Below, piece after piece: positions 6,406 through 25,900 of a stretch of DNA of 64,000 nt. The stretch is from positions 1-64,000 of IMG/VR virus record IMGVR_UViG_3300009081_000009, one strand, 5' to 3'. The notes below the pieces were generated by a model. The model ran no database searches. It was not told where the DNA came from and saw only the letters and a list, made by a program, of their open reading frames with translations. The translations under genes were made by a program, and so were the position numbers. This DNA comes from a virus. Position 1 is the stretch's first letter. Each line of letters begins with the position of its first letter.

Positions 6406-7812
6406 TTAGACCTCAGTATCGCCTTCTTGATTGCCGTTAGCGTCAAGACCAACACCACCCAAACCAGCTTCGCCATCGTAAGATGCGCCAGAGGTTTCCC
6501 ATGGGTATGAGTCGCGGTTAGACGAATCAATACCAAGGATTGCGTAGTTGATGTTCTTGAAGTTAATCAAGCGGTAGAACTGACCAGCACCGAGCAAGTT
6601 AGCTACGATTGCGTAACGTGACTTGACGATCAAGCGTGGAGAACCATCTTCCTGACCAGCAGTTTTTGTGAAGATGTATGGAATGTATGGCATAAAGATA
6701 ATGCCCGATTCACCCTGACGTGGGCCTTTATAGCCAACAAGAGCATAGGACTCTTCTGCGTAGATATCACGGTAAACCTTGATACCACCACCAATCAAAG
6801 AACCAGCTTCTGCAACACCGCCAGATGGCTGCATGTTCATTTTTCCGTCCATATAAGCAGTTGGAGTATAGATACCGTTATTAAGGGTAGATATAGCAGC
6901 AACAACGTCTGGAGAAGCGATAACCCAGTTACCAGAACCCATACGGGAAGTAACAGCGATCTTCTGAGCAACAGCGATAATCGTGTTAACGATACCACCA
7001 GCGATTCTTTCAGCAGCCCAACGACCGTCCATAGCCTTGGAAGTAGTGCTTGCAAGGTCAACTTCAAGTGCAGTTTCGCCACCCAAGCCCTTTGTAGTTG
7101 CAGCGAACTTCAAGGATGCAAGAATTTCACGGTCGATTTCCTGTTGGATCTCAAACTGAAGAGCTTCGAGCAATAGAGCCTCAATGTCCTGACCATGAAC
7201 AGCAGCCAAATCCTGCTGCAATTCAAGAGTATAATGTGACTTGATGGCACGAGTACCAACGATCACAGAACCCTTAATAACCTTAATAGAAGCTCTCTTA
7301 ATTGTGTTTCCACCAACAGTTGTGCCATCGGTATCAAATGTGTTAAGAGTTGTTCCATTTTCCATATAATTGGAAAGGAATTCACCTTCGGAAGTTGACC
7401 ATGGAGTTCCATTTCCCGGTTGTTTACCAGTATGGTCGGTATCAAGGTCGAAACCGATTTCTTTCTTCTGACCCTTACGGAAATCAGTAGTTTTTGTGGT
7501 GCCTTCGTACAAATAACGAAGTGCGAAATAAATACCCTGTGGAGTCGTGGTAGGAATAACAGCGATGGTGTTCATAGCTAACAACTCTGGGAACTGACGA
7601 CGAATCAGTGGAAGAGCATATTGCTGATAAACTTCAACATCTGCGGTTACGTTAGCAGATTCTGCAAGGAAACCCTTATTGAGCTTAACTTGGTTTTCCA
7701 ACAAAGTAGCAAGGACGGATGCCTCATTCTGACTTCTGATTGGAGCACCGATGTTGCTCTCAAGGACTGGTGCCCATTTCTGGACTAGACTTTTCTTCTG
7801 TATAGTTTTCAT
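6406..7812 (-). CDS. gp23: Major capsid protein (T4 gp23 family)
   Basis: KWAPVLE, LLENQ, LIRRQFPELLA, ELQQDLAAVHG, EIDREI, GYKG, PYIP, SRYA motifs; strong codon bias. Confidence 0.97.
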   Translation of the reverse strand: MKTIQKKSLVQKWAPVLESNIGAPIRSQNEASVLATLLENQVKLNKGFLAESANVTADVEVYQQYALPLIRRQFPELLAMNTIAVIPTTTPQGIYFALRYLYEGTTKTTDFRKGQKKEIGFDLDTDHTGKQPGNGTPWSTSEGEFLSNYMENGTTLNTFDTDGTTVGGNTIKRASIKVIKGSVIVGTRAIKSHYTLELQQDLAAVHGQDIEALLLEALQFEIQQEIDREILASLKFAATTKGLGGETALEVDLASTTSKAMDGRWAAERIAGGIVNTIIAVAQKIAVTSRMGSGNWVIASPDVVAAISTLNNGIYTPTAYMDGKMNMQPSGGVAEAGSLIGGGIKVYRDIYAEESYALVGYKGPRQGESGIIFMPYIPYIFTKTAGQEDGSPRLIVKSRYAIVANLLGAGQFYRLINFKNINYAILGIDSSNRDSYPWETSGASYDGEAGLGGVGLDANGNQEGDTEV

Positions 7813-7959
7813 TTTAAGTTACCTCTTGTAACATTGGTTTGGCTAAAATTTCAGCCTTCGAATATTGTTTATACAAGAGGAAAAACTTTTTTTATTTTTT
7901 TCGGAAAAACTACATTGAACCGCAAAAAACAGGCTTATATTGCTATGTAATATGCAATA

Positions 7960-8814
7960 TTAGCCGAATTTATTGAATCCAAGCCCTTTATATGTATCAA
8001 TCATACGTAGGGTGTCGCGAGTATCATTTTCCATTAATTCATCAGTTCCCATCGAAGCAGCTTCAATTAATGTTTCTGTACTAACGTCAGGACTGTGATT
8101 TACTTTGTGCTGTTTTAGTCCCTTTCCCAAACTTTCTAACTTAGGTGCTTTAGGAGTTGCAGTACCTGATACCTCGGCATTGATTTCATCCAATGCATCT
8201 TTAACTTGATCCAAATTAATTTCACCACTGAATTGATTATCTTCCGTGCTATCAGTAAATAATTCTGAGTGATCACCATCTAAAAAGTTAGCGATGGCAT
8301 CTTTATCAATTTCTCTAATATCTTTGTTCTTGAAAAATTCTATTGCAGCATCTACGATTTCAGGACGCATTCCCTTTGTTTCGTTCATTATCATAACTAA
8401 TTTAAGATTATCATTATATAAATCTTTAATCGCTTTACGTTCATCATATGCTTTCTGTAAACGTGTATCTGCTTCTTTCAAATCTTGTTGTAATTTTTTT
8501 GTAGCTTCTGTTGTAGGTATACCAGCGTCTTCGAGTAAATTAACCATTTCCTTTATTATCCCATAAAATTTTTTATTAATCATATCAGATGCGTTACCTC
8601 TGACGTTTTCAACTAAGACGCTACTAACTTTATTTTCAAATTTATTTGTAAGGTTTTCTACCAACGAATCAAATTTCTTAGAATTTTCCTTTTCTAAGGT
8701 ATCGATTTTATTATCAATACTTTCATTTATGGATCGTTCTATCTTAGACAATACCGTTGCTGGCATTGCTGATAGTTCAGTGTCATTCAAAAAATCCTTT
8801 AATTGTATAGCCAT
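7960..8814 (-). CDS. gp22: Prohead core scaffold protein (gp22-like)
   Basis: Coiled-coil acidic protein between protease and capsid genes, as in T4 synteny. Confidence 0.7.
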   Translation of the reverse strand: MAIQLKDFLNDTELSAMPATVLSKIERSINESIDNKIDTLEKENSKKFDSLVENLTNKFENKVSSVLVENVRGNASDMINKKFYGIIKEMVNLLEDAGIPTTEATKKLQQDLKEADTRLQKAYDERKAIKDLYNDNLKLVMIMNETKGMRPEIVDAAIEFFKNKDIREIDKDAIANFLDGDHSELFTDSTEDNQFSGEINLDQVKDALDEINAEVSGTATPKAPKLESLGKGLKQHKVNHSPDVSTETLIEAASMGTDELMENDTRDTLRMIDTYKGLGFNKFG

Positions 8815-16320: not shown

Positions 16321-16977
16321 TATACGCATCGATTCAGTTTTTATTAAATGCTGAATTCCACTACTAGCGTTTAAGTTAACATAAGATGGATCTGTGACAT
16401 TCAATGATATCCATCTATCAGCCATAGCATAAAAACTATCACGTGTACCAATTATATCAGTTAATGCATCATGTAAGTTTCCACTTGGTTTTATATCAAG
16501 TGCTTCCATTATAGTACCTAATTTAACATTTGGTACATTTAATTTACCTGATTTTTTTAAAGGACGTGTCATATCCATCAAATCATATGATATCTTGGTA
16601 CTAAAATAATATTCCAAATCCACTTCGTTAGCGTTTTTATGTTTTTGCCAAAATGATGATAAAAATCTCTTATCAAATGGAACATTCTGTCCAGCAAATA
16701 TAAATCTAGGTTGACCCTTTACAACATGCGAATCTAATATATTTTTTAATCCAATGAATGCTTCTCTGGGAGGTGGAAATGTTTTCAATTCCTCTACGGT
16801 CTTTCCAGTCACTTTTAACGCATCTTTACTAATGGCCCAAAAATTAACAGGAGAACATATAAAATTAAAAGACTCTAATATTTCGCGATTTTCAGTGACT
16901 AATCCAGCAATCTGAATTATATCCTGACGCTTATCGTCGAATCCTGTTGTTTCGGTATCAATAAATATTACTTTCAT
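16315..16977 (-). CDS. DEDDh 3'-5' exonuclease (DnaQ/epsilon-like)
   Basis: FIDTETTG, GQNVPFD, HDALTD motifs. Confidence 0.9.
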   Translation of the reverse strand: MKVIFIDTETTGFDDKRQDIIQIAGLVTENREILESFNFICSPVNFWAISKDALKVTGKTVEELKTFPPPREAFIGLKNILDSHVVKGQPRFIFAGQNVPFDKRFLSSFWQKHKNANEVDLEYYFSTKISYDLMDMTRPLKKSGKLNVPNVKLGTIMEALDIKPSGNLHDALTDIIGTRDSFYAMADRWISLNVTDPSYVNLNASSGIQHLIKTESMRIK

Positions 16978-17073
16978 AAAATAAATATAGCATTATTTAA
17001 ACCATTGGACTAAAAAATTATGTAATAATCTATATTAATTACATCAAAGGATGTTGAGTAACATCCGTTTATT

Positions 17074-17427
17074 ATGAAGGTATATATGTATTTAGATTAC
17101 GAAAAGAAAGAAATTATAACCAGAATATTCACAAGTCCTGATATAGCTATAATTAAAATAAATAATAAATCAAAACCAAAAACTTGGGGACAAGCTAAAT
17201 ACTGGTTTGACAAAGCATCAAATAATTTAAATCTAGATCCTGATTACTATAAAACAATCGGTTGGGATGAATGGAATGATTTCATGGAAGGTGATAGACC
17301 AGATGATGAAATCTGGCTATTTAAGTTAGAACCAAATAACAACTTCGTTCCATATTCAGAAGGATTCTTCCGTGTCAGAAATGATGAACCAGTTAATTAT
17401 CTGAATCTAAGTGAAATTGATAATTGA
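17074..17427 (+). CDS. Hypothetical protein
   Basis: 117-aa ORF whose stop overlaps the 3' end of the convergent tRNA-Gln. Confidence 0.55.
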   Translation: MKVYMYLDYEKKEIITRIFTSPDIAIIKINNKSKPKTWGQAKYWFDKASNNLNLDPDYYKTIGWDEWNDFMEGDRPDDEIWLFKLEPNNNFVPYSEGFFRVRNDEPVNYLNLSEIDN

Positions 17428-17494
17428 CCTAGCTGGGATCGAACCAGCGTACTTCGGGTCAGAGCCGAATGCACTACCTCTATGCTATAGGTCA
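17424..17494 (-). tRNA. tRNA-Gln(CTG)
   Basis: Cloverleaf TGACCTA...TTCGG-CTCTGAC-CCGAA...GCTGG-TTCGATC-CCAGC-TAGGTCA; U1-A72; CCA not encoded. Confidence 0.92.
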
Positions 17495-17502
17495 TCATTA
17501 TA

Positions 17503-17585
17503 TTGTCCATGTAGGAGTCGAACCTACAGTATCCTTTCGGATGCCAGATTCAAAATCTGGTGAGCTACCATTACTCTAATGGACA
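17503..17585 (-). tRNA. tRNA-Gln(TTG) with atypical long variable arm
   Basis: CCAGA-TTTTGAA-TCTGG anticodon arm; variable arm ATCC-GAAA-GGAT; U1-A72. Confidence 0.88.
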
Positions 17586-17590
17586 TCATA

Positions 17591-17663
17591 TTGTCCGTGC
17601 TGGACTCGAACCAGCATCCTTGTGCTTCAAAGGCACCTGCTCCACCAATTGAGCTAACGGACA
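17591..17663 (-). tRNA. tRNA-Gln(TTG)
   Basis: TGTCCGT acceptor, GTGC-CTTTGAA-GCAC anticodon arm, GCTGG-TTCGAGT-CCAGC T arm. Confidence 0.92.
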
Positions 17664-17669
17664 TCAAAT

Positions 17670-17759
17670 TTATTTATCACATTTAGAACACTTAATTTCA
17701 TTATTATAAGTGAAATATAATAATGAACCACATCTATCACACATCTTTACATAATACAT
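17670..17759 (-). CDS. 29-aa C4 zinc-ribbon microprotein MYYVKMCDRCGSLLYFTYNNEIKCSKCDK
   Basis: Strong SD GAGGTG; CxxC-x13-CxxC; fills the gap between terminator T3 and the first tRNA-Gln. Confidence 0.7.
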   Translation of the reverse strand: MYYVKMCDRCGSLLYFTYNNEIKCSKCDK

Positions 17760-17776
17760 ATACACCTCTATATACG

Positions 17777-17804
17777 AAAAGAACTCTTGCTTCTGCAAGA
17801 GTCC
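17777..17804 (-). terminator. Attenuator terminator T3 upstream of the tRNA-Gln block
   Basis: GGACTCTTGC-AGAA-GCAAGAGTTC-TTTT. Confidence 0.8.
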
Positions 17805-17827
17805 CTAATTTATTTGACATAGCAACA

Positions 17828-17890
17828 TCAATCAGGTGGTCTAGCAGAGCTATCCATTACTTGTTGTTGCTGTTGTTGATTTGTCTTCAT
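17828..17890 (-). CDS. Leader peptide L3 MKTNQQQQQQVMDSSARPPD (Gln sensor)
   Basis: Six consecutive Gln codons (CAA CAA CAG CAA CAA CAA); ATG at the predicted +1 of a consensus promoter; followed by T3 and three tRNA-Gln. Confidence 0.85.
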   Translation of the reverse strand: MKTNQQQQQQVMDSSARPPD

Positions 17891-17896
17891 ATTACT

Positions 17897-17925
17897 AATA
17901 TAGTTCTTTTTTAGTGTTTTGTCAA
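17897..17925 (-). promoter_or_regulatory. Sigma70-type promoter driving leaderless L3
   Basis: TTGACA-N17-TATATT, with ATG 6 nt after the -10 box. Confidence 0.85.
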
Positions 17926-17945
17926 TACTTTTTTATATTTTTTAG

Positions 17946-18017
17946 TGATCCCACAGGAAATCGAATCCTGCTCCACGGATTAAAAGTCCGTTGCTTAACC
18001 TTCCAAGCTCTGAGATC
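17946..18017 (-). tRNA. tRNA-Lys(TTT), divergent (G8, 4-nt variable loop)
   Basis: ACGGA-CTTTTAA-TCCGT anticodon arm; CAGGA-TTCGATT-TCCTG T arm. Confidence 0.85.
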
Positions 18018-18023
18018 ATATAG

Positions 18024-18095
18024 TGGTTCCACAGGGATTCGAACCCTGTTCCATCGGTTAAGAGCCGATTGCATCTCCTATTATGCTTTGGAACC
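18024..18095 (-). tRNA. tRNA-Lys(CTT) (A8, 4-nt variable loop)
   Basis: ATCGG-CTCTTAA-CCGAT; GGTTCCA/TGGAACC acceptor. Confidence 0.88.
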
Positions 18096-18099
18096 TTAG

Positions 18100-18174
18100 T
18101 GGAACTGGTGGGACTTGAACCCACGACCCATCGCTTAAAAGGCGATTGCTCTAAACCAACTGAGCTACAATTCC
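18100..18174 (-). tRNA. tRNA-Lys(TTT)
   Basis: ATCGC-CTTTTAA-GCGAT; canonical D and T arms. Confidence 0.95.
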
Positions 18175-18177
18175 ATA

Positions 18178-18249
18178 TGGGTGTGGAGAGATTTGAACTC
18201 TCGACTCGCTGATTAAAAGTCAGCTACTCTACCACTGAGTTACACACCC
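18178..18249 (-). tRNA. tRNA-Lys(TTT)
   Basis: GCTGA-CTTTTAA-TCAGC; GGGTGTG/CACACCC acceptor. Confidence 0.95.
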
Positions 18250-18250
18250 T

Positions 18251-18287
18251 AAAAAATAAAAAACCTCACAACAACTGTTGCGAGGTT
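18251..18287 (-). terminator. Attenuator terminator T2 upstream of the tRNA-Lys block
   Basis: AACCTCGCAAC-AGTT-GTTGTGAGGTT-TTTTATTTTTT; 5' arm also complementary to GCGAGGTT in leader L2. Confidence 0.9.
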
Positions 18288-18311
18288 CAGTGAAAATCAT
18301 ATAATATGATG

Positions 18312-18371
18312 TTACACAACAACCTCGCTTGGTTGCTTTTTCTGTTTATTTTGTTTACTAATCATCTGCAT
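18312..18371 (-). CDS. Leader peptide L2 MQMISKQNKQKKQPSEVVV (Lys/Gln sensor)
   Basis: AGGA SD; 4 Lys and 3 Gln codons within KQNKQKKQ; 3' end carries the antiterminator strand GCGAGGTT. Confidence 0.85.
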   Translation of the reverse strand: MQMISKQNKQKKQPSEVVV

Positions 18372-18401
18372 AATCTTATCCTATTAAAAACATTCATTTA
18401 G

Positions 18402-18473
18402 TGGTTGCACGGGTATCGAACCCGATCTCCAGATTTTCAGTCTAGCGCATCTACCATATATGCTATCACAACC
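18402..18473 (-). tRNA. tRNA-Phe(GAA), atypical acceptor/T-stem junction
   Basis: CTAGA-CTGAAAA-TCTGG anticodon arm; 8 nt before the UA linker and a 4-bp T stem. Confidence 0.75.
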
Positions 18474-18477
18474 ATAG

Positions 18478-18550
18478 TGGTCAGGATCGGAGTTGAACCG
18501 ATGACGCAAGCATTTTCAGTGCTTCGCTCTACCTACTGAGCTACCTGACC
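18478..18550 (-). tRNA. tRNA-Phe(GAA)
   Basis: AAGCA-CTGAAAA-TGCTT; GGTCAGG/CCTGACC acceptor. Confidence 0.95.
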
Positions 18551-18671
18551 ATATAAAAAAGTCACTTTCATCAGTATTTTCACTAAATCGAGATAATCCC
18601 ATTTTTCTATCCTCAAGTAAACTAAGCTACCACTATGCATCTAACTTATAGGTCTAGATACTTGACCTTTA

Positions 18672-18753
18672 TGGATCAGGCAGGATTCGAACCTGCAATG
18701 CCCGAAGGCGGGTGGGTTACAGCCACCTGAACAACCAATTGTTCAACTGATCC
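18672..18753 (-). tRNA. tRNA-Tyr(GTA)
   Basis: GGTGG-CTGTAAC-CCACC; long variable arm GCC-TTCG-GGC. Confidence 0.93.
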
Positions 18754-18759
18754 TTATAG

Positions 18760-18832
18760 TGGATGTGGTAGGATTTGAACCTACTTCCCCTGCATTATGA
18801 GAGCAGTGCTCGACCAATTGAGCTTCACATCC
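18760..18832 (-). tRNA. tRNA with CAT anticodon (Ile2/lysidine type favoured, elongator Met possible)
   Basis: CTGCT-CTCATAA-TGCAG; G1-C72, so not an initiator; leader L1 has two ATA codons. Confidence 0.85.
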
Positions 18833-18836
18833 ATAG

Positions 18837-18917
18837 TGGGTTAGGTAGGGGTCGAACCTACAGTGCCCGAAGGCGGGGGATTTACAGTCCCCGGAGCAAC
18901 CATTGCTCAACTAACCC
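18837..18917 (-). tRNA. tRNA-Tyr(GTA)
   Basis: GGGGA-CTGTAAA-TCCCC; long variable arm. Confidence 0.95.
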
Positions 18918-18925
18918 AAATTACA

Positions 18926-18959
18926 TAACAAAAACCCACTTCTTTTGGAAGTGGGCTTT
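18926..18959 (-). terminator. Attenuator terminator T1 upstream of the Tyr/CAT/Phe block
   Basis: GCCCACTTC-CAAAA-GAAGTGGGT-TTTTGTT; CACTTCC also complementary to GGAAGTG in leader L1. Confidence 0.9.
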
Positions 18960-18993
18960 ATAACTTTTGCCATACGCATTTTACGTATATAAG

Positions 18994-19065
18994 TTATCGC
19001 ATCACACTTCCTTTCGGAGTTGTTTTTATAAATCGATAATACTTATATATGCGTTTCATGTTCAT
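18994..19065 (-). CDS. Leader peptide L1 MNMKRIYKYYRFIKTTPKGSVMR (Tyr/Ile-AUA/Phe/Lys sensor)
   Basis: Codon run AAA CGC ATA TAT AAG TAT TAT CGA TTT ATA AAA; antiterminator strand GGAAGTG near the 3' end. Confidence 0.85.
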   Translation of the reverse strand: MNMKRIYKYYRFIKTTPKGSVMR

Positions 19066-19072
19066 ACCTTAT

Positions 19073-19102
19073 AATATAGTTCTTTTTAAGACACTTTGAT
19101 AA
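19073..19102 (-). promoter_or_regulatory. Possible second promoter directly ahead of L1
   Basis: AAAAAGAAC-TATATT-A context identical to the L3 promoter; weak -35 TTATCA at 18-nt spacing. Confidence 0.5.
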
Positions 19103-19143
19103 ACTTTTTTAGAGAAATACTACTTTTCTTTCTCTATGTATAC

Positions 19144-19172
19144 AATATAGGAAAAAATTCAATGAATGTCAA
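19144..19172 (-). promoter_or_regulatory. Sigma70-type promoter of the tRNA cluster
   Basis: TTGACA-N17-TATATT. Confidence 0.85.
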
Positions 19173-19186
19173 TGAAAAAGTACAAT

Positions 19187-20809
19187 TTATTCACTTTCCG
19201 GTGGATTGTACTTAATATACTCAGCATATTCATCCATAATTCGCTTATTTTCCGCTTTTTGCCACTTATCGGCCTCATCCAACTGTTTTTTAGTTCCTAT
19301 TGGTTTTGGGGGTTTACGATTCATATCCTTTTCTGAGTCTCTTATATCACTTGCATTCATTTTCAACCTCATTAAATAGTCATCTGGATATTCTTCTAAT
19401 TGCCATTTACTAACACCAGTTACTTTTTTAAGAAATTCTTTTTTATTATTGTCATTCATTGCCTTAAACATAGAAATGATTGAGAATATTGTTTTATCTC
19501 TATAACTCATATCATCTGAATTCAACTTTGATTTTGTGGTAGGTGGATACCATCCCTGTCCTTCTATGATTCCAGCACCCTCTTCCATTTTTCGTAACCT
19601 ATCATAATAATCAGGAATTTCAGCTTCATGATCCTTTGCGATTTCATACGCTATCTCTGGATTATTAGTATGTTCAGACTCTACATCTACGCCCATATCC
19701 AATTGATCCTCTATATCCTCTACAGGAAGTCCATGTTTCTTTGCTATGTCTTCTGGTGTCATTCCATCAGCTCTGCCACCAATAAGATGCTCAGCAGCTT
19801 CGAATCGACCTTTGGGTTTACTATAATGTTCATTCATGACTGTCTTTGTCAATCCTGCATCACGTAACATTAATTCACCGCGACATTTACCATATGATCC
19901 AAGTCTGGTTAAGTCACCACCCATCAATTCCATACTACCCATTAAATCAAATACACCAGAAATAAATTCATTCTCCCATAATTGTTCCATTTGCTCTGAT
20001 GTTAAATAACGAGGACTTCTACTATTACCTCTGACATCAGCTTCATGTGTTAATATAGCTTGACAATACAATTTGAATGGAATCCCAAGCAATCGTTCAA
20101 ATTCTTTTTGTGTAATTCCATCTACTCTATCGCTAATTAACCACAAATCTTCGGGATCACTATCATATACTTTAGCAGCAACACCAGACTGTTGAACATA
20201 TCCATCAGCCTCAGTTCCATTCTGAGCAATTCCTTTAGCATTTTTTGCCAATTTTAATACTTTATCATTACCTAAATCAAATGTTGTACGAGAACTTCCT
20301 GTACCCAATTGAGATAATTTTGATTTAGCATATTTAACTCTTGCAGCAAAACTAGGTAATTGTTTAAATGTTTTTACATCAAATGGCATATCTTGAATAG
20401 ATGTATCTAATCCTTCCAATATGCAAGTTATTAATGAATCATCAGCATTACCTCTAAATGATTCAATGAAAATACGTAATGCGTTATATGATTCTGTCAT
20501 TGGTCTTACCATTGAGTTTGATATAGTGAAATCTTTATGTCGGCCTTTATTTGGTTTAAATCCTAACCCTTTATAAAATTTTAGTAGTTTACCTTTTTTG
20601 CCACCAAAATCAGTTGATGGTGATAGTGATACTTGTTTCTTTACACTATTTGCGTATTGAATTATATCATTCATAATATTAGTCCCTATTCCTGAATTTC
20701 GTAATTCAGGATTGACTACTATTTTAGATACTTCTACACTATTACGTCCATCCCAGACAAATAAGTCAGCGACATCTTTATATTTATCTTTGATTTGATC
20801 TAATGTCAT
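19187..20809 (-). CDS. Multidomain protein: GNAT acetyltransferase + kinase-like + DUF5661-like
   Basis: IVVNPELRNSGIGTNIM (GNAT motif A); LGTGSSR..F...VLKLAKN..GIAQN..E, DL..LGSYG, LRDAG (kinase-like); GVDVESEHT...EIAKDH..E.PDYYDRL (DUF5661-like). Start placed at the ATG right after the upstream stop. Confidence 0.7.
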   Translation of the reverse strand: MTLDQIKDKYKDVADLFVWDGRNSVEVSKIVVNPELRNSGIGTNIMNDIIQYANSVKKQVSLSPSTDFGGKKGKLLKFYKGLGFKPNKGRHKDFTISNSMVRPMTESYNALRIFIESFRGNADDSLITCILEGLDTSIQDMPFDVKTFKQLPSFAARVKYAKSKLSQLGTGSSRTTFDLGNDKVLKLAKNAKGIAQNGTEADGYVQQSGVAAKVYDSDPEDLWLISDRVDGITQKEFERLLGIPFKLYCQAILTHEADVRGNSRSPRYLTSEQMEQLWENEFISGVFDLMGSMELMGGDLTRLGSYGKCRGELMLRDAGLTKTVMNEHYSKPKGRFEAAEHLIGGRADGMTPEDIAKKHGLPVEDIEDQLDMGVDVESEHTNNPEIAYEIAKDHEAEIPDYYDRLRKMEEGAGIIEGQGWYPPTTKSKLNSDDMSYRDKTIFSIISMFKAMNDNNKKEFLKKVTGVSKWQLEEYPDDYLMRLKMNASDIRDSEKDMNRKPPKPIGTKKQLDEADKWQKAENKRIMDEYAEYIKYNPPESE

Positions 20810-22927: not shown

Positions 22928-25900
22928 TTATAATATGTCCCTAACGCTAGGCATTCTGGATTTCTTTAATTGAGCAATAACCTTTTCTACATTCAAACCA
23001 TTTTTTAATGGTTCAATTATAGGTTTTTCGCGAGTTAATTTTGCTCGTCTAGCACCAACCAATTGAGAATTTGATACCAATTTTTCATAAACAGATTCAC
23101 CACTACCATCAGTATACATATCTTCAATGTTTGCACCAGCACCACGAACAGTACCATCAGGATCTGTCTTTTTATTATTTATATTTATACGAGCGTACAT
23201 ATCACGCAATTGATCAAATGTTAATAGATCCTGTGTATTTATGACACCAAATTCATTTTCAAGATAATCTATAAATTCATAATTAGGTGAATTATAGAAT
23301 GTGTCATACATGAACTTTATTTTTAGATTATTAAATAACTCTACTATCTCAGTATATTCTTTATATAACTGATCACTAATCAATGAATGCAGCACAAGTG
23401 CGTCTTTATTTATTGGAGTTCCGTCATCAGCATACCCATCTATAACCGATGTTTCTGATTTTATATTTACTATGGCAGCATCACCTTCAGGTATAAAAAT
23501 ACCATCTTGATATTGACCAAACTGAACATGGTTAAAATCTAATTGTTTTTGACCGAAGGTATTACCATTTCCCTCTCTATGCATAGAACGCGCTTCTAAT
23601 ATAGGAGTTGTTAATTTTCCATCATATAATGTTATATATGATCCATCAGGTAATTCATCAATCTTTATTTGTATATTATAATAATAGTCACCTAGATATA
23701 ATTGCACAAATTTAATAGGATCAGTTTTGTAGTATTTCGTTACTATATTACTAAATCTCTCAATATAATCACCAGCAAGTAATCCTCTAGTTGCTGAGTA
23801 GTTACCTATTAATGAATAAAATATAACCAATTGATTGAATGATTTAGGATTTCCCGATTTCCACTCAGATACCAATTGTCTACCCATTAATGAGGTTCCA
23901 TTTGATTTCATTTTTCCATCAATTAATAATAAAAATTCCTTCACATCCTTCAATACTAAATCACTTGGAATAGCATAATTGGTTATTTTCTTAGGATCTA
24001 CCCACAAATCACCATTTATCGTGATTCCAGTATTAGCTGCTTTACTACCTATTTTTACATAAGGTGCCGTTATATCATTTCCATCAGTTACTAAATAACC
24101 AGCCTCGGTGACATTAACATATGCATTAGTTATTACAGGATCTTGTTGCGTAAATGCAGCATCTCTGAATTTTAACGCATCTTTATGATTTACACCAATT
24201 GGTAAAAATTCCCATACAAATAAATCAGGCCCAGTTACTAACTGACCACACCATATTACATTTAATGGTTCGCCATAATAACCGTTCTTCACACCATCAA
24301 TATATGCTTCTGCTATATTAAGCAAACGCATCATATCAGGAGTGCCATCTTCTATAGCCGTTATATTATCATCTTTAGTAATTCTTATTTTTACTGATAA
24401 TCCATAATTATGCCATGATAAAAATGTACTTACATCACCACCCAATTGTAATTTATCCTGATCTTCAGTCGATCTCATAGTTTCTATTAAATGAACTCTA
24501 GATTTACCAAATTCAGCCTCTAAAATCTTTAGTAAAAATTCAACCTTATTATATATATCTATACCACTACGTAATGTATTTATTGACTTACTGGATTCAT
24601 GAAATATTTCCCATCCCGGTATATCTGCATTTAATACAATATTACCAGCCATATCATATGTATAGTCACCATTTCTATTTTTATTTGCAGTAGATGATTG
24701 ATCAAATGACCCAAAATCACTAAATACTTGCTTACGTAATTCTGAATCATATGGCAAGTGAGGCATTGCATAATTGACTTTAATATTTTTTGGATCATCT
24801 GATGGCTTAGTTGTATCAAACGGCATTAATACTTTATTAAGCACACCACCGGATGTATTTCCGCTAAATGTCACATTAGTTGGTGCTGTATATGTTATAT
24901 GAGTAGAATCTATAATTTTAGCATCAAATGTTCCATTGAATGTTTCATTAGAACAACCAGAAATTGTTACAATTACAGTTTCAGGCATAGGATCTTTATT
25001 CATTATAGAAGTCGGCAATGTACTTGATAATGTAGCAGATGCATAAGTTCCATTTCCATTTAATGCTGATATTGAGATATTCATATCATTTGGAATTCCT
25101 AATGGCTCATCATTCTTTCTATATTTTGTATATGTATTGGTATCTACAAAATTGACCTCTACCCAACGAACACCAAGATCAACTTTTCTATATGTTGTGT
25201 ATTTTCTACCAAATAATCCTTTTTTTCGTATTTTTTTACGCTTTGTGCCCATGTATACAGGAACCAATAATCTACATAACTGCTTATCATATATAAAATT
25301 TTCATCCTCAACTGGAGGTATGGTAGAATCATCAGTATCAAAATTCTTTATGAATTGTCTATCAGGAAATACAGATTCATTGGTATAGTGCTGATACCAT
25401 CGTATATTTCTAATAATAACATTCAATTCACGCAAACTATCTTTAGCATCCGAAATACTTTCATACGCCAAGGCAACAGCAACCGCACCAAATCCAGCAC
25501 TAACAAATGCAGCACCGATAACAGCAGAGGCTGCTCGATTAACTTGTTTTTTTAGTTTTGGTAATATGTCAATTATCTCATTTATATTAGTCTCTGTAGG
25601 TAATACATATTCATATTCAAATTTTTTATTGTTATTTTTATCTAATACGAATTTGACTCCACCCGGAACCTCGGAATCTTCCGTAGTTACATATTTAGCA
25701 AATGGAACCGCAGCAGTTGTATCAGTCACAACCAACTCAGATTTTAGAGTAATTGGGTTATATGCTAATGTTTCAGCCAATGAAGGATCAACTACAAACT
25801 GTTTTGTTAGATTGATATCTTCCTCATCTACGAATGAATTAACTATTGCACTTGAATTTATTGCCTTTATCAAGGCAGTTAATTCTTCTATGAAACTATC

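Follow-up and report, generated by a model that had tools for sequence, protein, structure and literature searches.

Two leader-peptide attenuators probably placed in series within a tRNA array of an uncultured giant phage

The window analysed here, 64,000 nucleotides (nt) in length, is the first 64 kb of the 164.7-kb IMG/VR record IMGVR_UViG_3300009081_000009 (the whole record is called G000 below), which comes from an uncultured giant phage, and it carries on its minus strand an array of transfer RNA (tRNA) genes interspersed with short leader open reading frames (ORFs), labelled L, and intrinsic terminators, labelled T. We find it probable that this array holds two ribosome-mediated leader-peptide attenuators in series within one transcription unit. 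Transcription would enter at the promoters P0/P1 or from the upstream operon, and the polymerase would meet, in this order, L1 with T1, the genes Tyr-CAT-Tyr-Phe-Phe, L2 with T2 without a new promoter, and, last, four tRNA-Lys genes. At each gate, a ribosome at the stop codon of the leader would mask a pairing segment and the terminator would form; a ribosome stalled earlier would leave that segment free, the antiterminator would form, and the polymerase would continue. L1 would act as a broad sensor, with codons for all the tRNAs that its promoter can reach (Tyr, ATA/ATG, Phe and Lys), and L2 as a narrow sensor, for Lys plus Gln. In other words, a shortage of Tyr or Phe would open gate 1 alone, and a shortage of Lys would open gates 1 and 2 both. 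The order of elements on the minus strand is P0/P1, L1, T1, Tyr-CAT-Tyr, a spacer, Phe-Phe, L2, T2, four Lys, P3-L3-T3, a small zinc-ribbon ORF and three Gln, with the following coordinates, all on the minus strand (tRNA genes were called with ARAGORN and Rfam).

19144..19172, minus strand: P0, a consensus sigma-70-type promoter (TTGACA-17-TATATT) just 3' of an upstream 547-amino-acid gene; matrix score 28.9, genome rank 9
19073..19102, minus strand: P1, a promoter whose -35 element is degenerate here; matrix score 6.3
18994..19065, minus strand: L1, a leader ORF of 23 codons with the core I-Y-K-Y-Y-R-F-I-K
18931..18959, minus strand: T1, an intrinsic terminator with a 12-bp stem and a U-run, about -16 kcal/mol
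18672..18917, minus strand: tRNA-Tyr(GTA), tRNA(CAT) and tRNA-Tyr(GTA)
18551..18671, minus strand: spacer of 121 nt
18401..18550, minus strand: two tRNA-Phe(GAA)
18312..18382, minus strand: L2, with a Shine-Dalgarno (SD) sequence AGGA (18382-18379) and a 19-codon ORF (18371-18312), core K-Q-N-K-Q-K-K-Q
18261..18288, minus strand: T2, an intrinsic terminator with a 12-bp stem and a long U-run, about -17 kcal/mol
17946..18249, minus strand: four tRNA-Lys (TTT, TTT, CTT, TTT)
17779..17925, minus strand: the consensus promoter P3 (17925-17897), the poly-Gln leader L3 (17890-17828) and T3 (17806-17779)
17424..17663, minus strand: three tRNA-Gln (TTG, TTG, CTG)

The elements and their order, the absence of any recognisable promoter ahead of L2 and the codon statistics given below are read directly from the sequence. 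Both L1 and L2 have the classical four-region design of an attenuator, and the features by which a leader-peptide attenuator can be recognised are present: an ORF with a start signal, matching codons, an intrinsic terminator, and an antiterminator that would be masked by a ribosome at the stop codon. The core codons of L1 match the Tyr, CAT, Phe and Lys tRNAs; two of its codons are ATA, with a CAT-anticodon tRNA downstream, none is a Gln codon, and four are Lys codons (19056-54, 19044-42, 19026-24 and 19014-12). The preliminary description of this DNA had remarked on these four Lys codons because the block that L1 heads has no tRNA-Lys, and this is indeed the case, that block being Tyr, CAT, Tyr, Phe, Phe. 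The 5' segment of the L1 antiterminator, GGAAGTG (19011-19005), pairs with CACTTCC, which lies in the T1 5' arm, closing an inner set of hairpins; the predicted energies are about -21 kcal/mol for the 1:2 hairpin (codons 5-9 with a downstream segment), -20.7 kcal/mol for the antiterminator and -16.1 kcal/mol for T1. We modelled folding of the nascent transcript as far as the terminator loop, masking 28 nt for the ribosome. In this model the T1 arm is captured by the antiterminator with the aminoacyl (A) site of the ribosome at codons 2-15 and no longer from codon 16 on; therefore K4, K8 and K14 would be competent sensors, and K18 would not. L2 has four Lys and four Gln codons, the latter at 18368-66, 18353-51, 18344-42 and 18335-33, so the earlier observation of Gln codons here, with the Gln tRNAs lying one block further on, was accurate; L2 has no Tyr, Phe or ATA codons. 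Its antiterminator segment GCGAGGTT (18328-18321) pairs with AACCTCGC, the energies are -8.3 (1:2 hairpin), -19.9 (antiterminator) and -16.8 kcal/mol (T2), and the window in which the antiterminator is free corresponds in the model to an A site at codons 2-11 and, in part, 12-13. Equilibrium folding with ribosome masks favoured the terminators in every state, with no discrimination, and was replaced by the nascent-transcript model. Because equilibrium folds always favour the terminators, the switch is read as a kinetic one; leader translation, ribosome stalling and switching are what we infer. Neither a T-box nor a riboswitch is apparent: among Rfam families, only tRNA scores above its gathering threshold in 16500-20000, with Thr_leader at 22.2 bits (threshold 55) and L10_leader at 28.5 bits (threshold 44) both falling short.

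Does L2 have an entry of its own? With a promoter matrix built from 19 near-consensus promoters of G000 and applied to both strands, real promoters of this phage score 17-34 (P3 scores 26.4), and one near-consensus promoter lies within another tRNA array, at 103713. On the minus strand at 18372-18700, this phage-own matrix finds no sigma-70-type site above -4. A further motif, TATAAACTA, has 25 exact copies in G000, and since 23 of the 34 copies of its 8-base core, TATAAACT, lie no more than 80 nt upstream of a long ORF, TATAAACTA is probably the late promoter of the phage, a variant of the T4 late motif TATAAATA; copies in the window include those at 22932 (minus strand), 33719 (plus) and 45417 (plus). 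No match to it with up to one mismatch is found in 17400-19250. The record is about 39% complete, and a search for MotA was therefore uninformative. The mode of initiation also differs among the leaders, as the ATGs of L1 and L3 sit 6-7 nt past a -10 hexamer, a leaderless arrangement, and L2 is instead SD-led, its AGGA lying 7 nt upstream of its ATG. In L1 the ATG is 7 nt past the -10 element of P1, so that L1 may be leaderless when transcribed from P1; AAGG stands ahead of a second ATG. The preliminary description had placed L2 about 30 nt after tRNA-Phe with no evident promoter, and both statements agree with our measurements: the distance is 29-31 nt (tRNA-Phe ending at 18401 or 18403, L2 starting at 18371), and neither a sigma-70-type site nor a late-type motif lies ahead of L2. 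As far as these two kinds of promoter go, then, the two switches of the unit are not separated by a promoter, and the further claim that the Lys tRNAs depend on read-through of both T1 and T2 stands on sequence grounds for the promoter classes modelled: their expression would need passage of both terminators, with other classes of promoter being possible. From the stop of the 547-amino-acid gene to L1 (19187-18960, minus strand), the prediction gives no terminator; therefore transcripts of that operon would enter L1/T1. T1 may double as the terminator of this upstream operon.

For the codon content, the genome supplies its own controls. Seven leader-terminator pairs were found in G000, and all seven leaders have a start signal, codons matching the downstream tRNAs, and a stop-codon segment that pairs with the 5' arm of the terminator. 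For example, 15 of 15 consecutive codons in the leader of a Leu/Ser/Trp/Cys/His array come from those five amino acids, and the leader of an Ala/Gly/Met/Thr/Ile/Arg/Val/Asp array has 24 of 24 from those eight. The match extends to the level of the codon: the Ile codons of this Ala-array leader are ATT and ATC only, with a GAT tRNA downstream, and L1 has ATA with a CAT tRNA. As an off-path control for a given residue we used the leaders that have no tRNA of that residue downstream. Lys occupies 4 of 22 positions in L1 against 2 of 107 off-path (Fisher p 0.008), Gln 4 of 18 in L2 against 1 of 88 (p 0.003), and Glu 4 of 23 in the leader of an Asn array, described below, against 2 of 109 (p 0.009); the combined Fisher p for these three nested cases is 2.5e-5. 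Against the composition of the phage proteome, the binomial p is 0.079 for Lys in L1, 0.0017 for Gln in L2 and 0.048 for Glu in the Asn leader, and a Monte Carlo test on the sum of the three gives p = 1.9e-4. The direction is one-way, the inner leaders having no codons of the outer blocks. By these tests, which are partly post hoc, the nested codon content exceeds chance.

The Glu case constitutes a second nested pair. The sole other internal leader without a promoter in the genome is the Glu leader (G000 124298-124348), which lies 26 nt after tRNA-Arg(TCT) and has an SD sequence and the core E-R-E-E-E-R; a terminator and then the Glu tRNAs come after it. Its unit is headed, next to the promoter, by the Asn/Arg leader, with the core N-N-N-N-E-R(AGA)-E. 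In this leader, codons of the block it heads (three Asn tRNAs and Arg-TCT) stand together with four Glu codons, which correspond to the inner block; Asn and AGA codons are absent from the Glu leader. Both strict nested pairs of the genome follow the rule put forward in the preliminary description, namely that an upstream leader also carries the codons of the next block: the nested codon set is present from L1 to L2, for Lys, and from the Asn leader to the Glu leader, for Glu, and it is absent for Gln.

The inner gates of the two pairs also resemble each other. Local alignment of L2/T2 (window 18250-18400, minus strand) with the Glu leader and its terminator (G000 124272-124415, plus strand) scores 58, with a z-score of 10.6; any other pair of leaders stays at or below 3.1. 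Judged by this alignment, the two are clearly paralogs. They align in frame, with GAA, GAA and GAG of the Glu leader facing AAA, AAA and AAG of L2, CGT facing CAG, and GAA facing CAA; therefore the inner gate would have been copied and its sensor recoded by single-base changes, at the first base for Glu to Lys. The Gln codons of L2 occupy four positions at which its paralog has other residues, which argues against a passive leftover. An origin of L2 as a copy of L3 was rejected (alignment z-score 1.5). Dedicated, mostly single-amino-acid gates are those for Lys with Gln (window 18371), Gln (window 17890) and Glu (G000 124298), and tRNA genes for Lys, Gln and Glu have the highest copy numbers (4, 3 and 5). 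The UUN-anticodon tRNAs for these three amino acids share a modified wobble uridine, which is a target of anticodon nucleases.

What, then, is the role of the Gln codons in L2? Their enrichment beyond chance is real, and the Gln half of the cascade is weak. P3 is among the best promoter matches of the genome, and P3-L3-T3 reads as an independent entry to the Gln tRNAs; P3 and L3 are conserved in L001, an IMG/VR relative with a neighbouring protein that is 70% identical, and L001 has no L2. The preliminary description saw no terminator between the Lys block and L3, and none is predicted from the last tRNA-Lys (17946) to L3; the same gap holds P3, which went unmentioned there. A shortage of Gln by itself cannot open T1, as no codon of L1 is for Gln, and L2 is not required for L3 and the Gln tRNAs, which P3 serves as a consensus promoter of their own. 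Under Gln shortage alone, the Gln codons of L2 could act on basal read-through only. We prefer to regard L2 as a joint Lys/Gln sensor, useful when both fail together. Its Gln codons would probably serve to open gate 2 on a joint failure of Lys and Gln decoding, for example upon an attack on tRNAs that share the modified wobble U; with gate 2 open, polymerases already beyond T1 would proceed to L3/T3, and this route to a supply of Gln tRNAs would be secondary to P3. Of the serial cascade proposed in the preliminary description, in which loss of a given tRNA opens the gates to its replacement, the Lys half (L1/T1 and then L2/T2, with the Asn-to-Glu pair alongside) appears well supported by what we infer from the sequence, and the Gln half is weak and not supported as proposed, P3 being independent and L1 lacking a Gln codon.

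Relatives of the array are few. Protein-anchored scans gave L001 as the only relative, and none in metagenomes; exact and degenerate pattern scans of IMG/VR and a pattern scan of the metagenome collection gave no close relative of L2. In L001 the L1 peptide is identical and the L1-T1 DNA is 98% identical, with three substitutions (one synonymous, one in the T1 loop, and one at a G-U pair of the small hairpin just upstream of T1), and P1 has the full consensus at the same place. The L1 unit of L001 contains two odd tRNA-like genes, a homing-endonuclease ORF, and after these the tRNA genes CAT, Lys and Phe; L2 is missing from it, and no terminator intervenes up to P3. A tRNA-Lys thus lies in the transcription unit of L1 in both layouts, which supports a functional link and also permits the view that the Lys codons were inherited. 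Parts of the stretch are also present in the public runs X2, X3 and X5. In a diverged relative (contigs, run X5), the core of L2 changes from AAT to AAG, AAA to AAG and AAG to AAA, so that among the differences listed only third codon positions are affected and every Gln codon of the core stays the same; the L2 antiterminator keeps its two pairing partners, and the inner hairpin has a compensatory change from A-U to U-A. In L022, a piece from the metagenome of L001, the Glu leader is retained; its Glu codons have changed synonymously, and the arms of its terminator covary. A promoter of its own and an ORF stand ahead of this leader in L022, and the end of the contig falls short of the Asn leader. 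The arrays of L022, L023 and L024 yielded no internal leaders, and the record G001 has no other tRNA array.

The relatives show other features as well. Upstream of L1 in L001, between two consensus promoters, a segment of about 190 nt (7765-7960, plus strand) has a long closing stem and a U-run; it is absent from the window and may be a small RNA. The two tRNA-like sequences straight after T1 (L001 8262-8490, plus strand) are called by neither ARAGORN nor Rfam, and in the second the anticodon loop reads GTA and the variable region spans about 35 nt. ORFs resembling homing endonucleases occur in the tRNA arrays of the relatives (L001 8608-9468 and 9770-10720; L022 960-2145), each after TATAAACTA, and such insertions are the source of most layout differences among relatives.

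Several observations weigh against two gates in series. The spacer or tRNA-Phe may contain a promoter that escaped recognition, of the middle type or another, or an entry that depends on processing. The strict nested pairs number only two, both from one genome; the enrichment of Lys in L1 is marginal when compared with the proteome alone (the p of 0.079 above), and off-path enrichments occur too, namely Thr in the Asn leader (5/23) and CGN Arg codons in L1 and the Glu leader. With the terminators favoured in every equilibrium fold, the switch depends on a kinetic model. The Gln step is unneeded, given an L1 without a Gln codon and an L3 with its own promoter. L1 is near-identical in L001, in which tRNA-Lys belongs to the block of L1 itself, so inheritance may account for the Lys codons, and the start codon of L2 could not be rebuilt for the diverged relative from the differences listed. 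Do these points add up to a different explanation? The Lys codons of L1 might have been carried over from an L001-like layout, with L2 and the extra Lys genes inserted later by copying of the Glu-leader cassette and the Gln codons of L2 having no link to the Gln genes. The near-identity of L1-T1 across two genomes, the presence of tRNA-Lys in the L1 unit of L001 without L2, the paralogy of L2 with the Glu leader, and the absence of Gln codons from L1 all fit such a history. We consider it unlikely nonetheless, as codons, inherited or not, would work in the layout as it stands now, the same pattern recurs in the independent Asn-to-Glu pair, and L2 gained Gln at four separate positions relative to its paralog, three of which are kept in the diverged relative.

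A phage-specific or activator-dependent promoter in the spacer or tRNA-Phe would take tRNA-Lys out of the control of T1 and make the Lys codons of L1 irrelevant to it. Our scans modelled sigma-70-type and TATAAACTA-type motifs only, the 121-nt spacer is unexplained, and the Glu leader of L022 stands behind its own promoter and an ORF; yet the in-array promoters of this phage are near-consensus (103713 and 17925), L2 is SD-led, unlike the leaderless, promoter-led L1 and L3, and the gap from tRNA-Phe to L2 is just 29 nt, which together make a hidden entry of this kind quite improbable. Composition offers another explanation: AAA/AAG and CAA are common at 33% guanine plus cytosine (GC), and the extra codons of L1 and L2 could be noise around single-block attenuators, as the marginal binomial result for Lys in L1 and the unrelated Thr and Arg enrichments would allow. 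The other leaders are nearly devoid of Lys, Gln and Glu in the off-path comparison, however, the combined and Monte Carlo p values are low, and the nested codons are interleaved within the leader cores, so we regard noise as very improbable. Finally, the short ORFs might be untranslated, with T1 and T2 as plain partial terminators or processing signals between tRNA sub-operons. Equilibrium folds that favour terminators in all states would be in keeping with this, but seven of seven leaders have a start signal, matching codons and a segment that pairs with the terminator, and the substitutions in L2 fall at third positions; to us this explanation is scarcely credible. The reading that we retain is that of two leader-peptide attenuators in series.

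As to the wider setting, G000 has 33% GC and at least 58 tRNA genes. Its capsid protein is about 30% identical to those of cultured T4-like phages, and there is therefore no cultured comparator; GenBank phages give matches at the tRNA level only. The fourth tRNA-Lys(TTT) of the array (18017-17946, minus strand) scores 52.8 bits with Rfam and was missed by ARAGORN. In the 121-nt spacer (18551-18671, minus strand), we found no terminator, no promoter match and no repeat elsewhere; a decayed tRNA or a repeat was considered and rejected, with no tRNA likeness and no repeat found, and the fold is unremarkable (z-score -0.25). The spacer contains an SD-led ORF whose two Phe codons continue into tRNA-Phe, and it is also found in contigs from other public runs. 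Additionally, within the Leu/Ser array, ARAGORN calls a tRNA with a four-base anticodon (tata) at G000 103227-103309 (minus strand).

The debate on why phages carry tRNA genes is decades old. The arrays described here appear to be activated by the same failure of decoding that they remedy, and the two-gate layout would let the phage sense which set of tRNAs is missing and pay for that set only. As a tentative generalization, in which our belief falls a little short of even, we propose that phage tRNA arrays may form a codon-addressed decision tree: the proximal leader would hold the union of the reachable codon sets and the inner leaders subsets of it, so that loss of a specific tRNA would open the path to its replacement. 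Inner gates would arise by cassette copying and single-base recoding (GAA/GAG to AAA/AAG, as in L2 versus the Glu leader), and the dedicated gates for Lys, Gln and Glu would be a response to anticodon-nuclease pressure. If confirmed, such arrays would represent a natural hierarchical logic made from leader peptides and terminators alone and would offer a compact design for in-cell reporters of the status of individual tRNAs; the leader codons would also provide a sequence signature that predicts which host tRNAs are attacked in uncultured phage-host pairs. Literature text searches returned no paper on attenuation of phage tRNA genes, and layered two-gate control was not found published.

Known systems share parts of this design. 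Enterobacteria have multivalent attenuators, for example the thr leader (Thr and Ile), the ilvGMEDA leader (Leu, Val and Ile), trpL and hisL. The phage leaders resemble such amino-acid operon leaders in their short, codon-rich ORF, terminator, stop-codon-masked antiterminator and 1:2 hairpin, and in reading several amino acids per leader. They differ in that phage tRNA genes rather than biosynthetic enzymes are controlled, in that the match is at the codon/anticodon level, and in that two leaders stand in series, the outer of which includes the codons of the inner. The pheST attenuator of E. coli, with its pheM leader, likewise senses decoding by a single tRNA species and regulates a part of the translation apparatus, but it controls a synthetase rather than a tRNA, has a single gate and is chromosomal. 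Among phages, Lys and Tyr tRNAs replace host tRNAs that are destroyed by anticodon nucleases or retron effectors (PMC10264068; PMC11555353), and the amino acids of this array overlap these known targets; in those papers the supply comes from strong promoters and from variants that resist nucleases, and no demand-sensing control is described (PMC10264068; PMC11555353). In the B. subtilis pyr operon, three serial attenuation sites all answer to PyrR, one signal (PMC7430163). Like the phage array, it has serial terminator/antiterminator switches in one unit, some of them internal between genes; unlike the phage gates, it has no ribosome sensor and no nested signal sets. Tandem riboswitches and tandem T-boxes are also serial cis-acting RNA gates with AND-like control, and T-boxes, too, read the status of tRNA; what sets the phage array apart from them is that sensing would be done by the ribosome, that genes lie between the gates, and that each gate would release a product set of its own.

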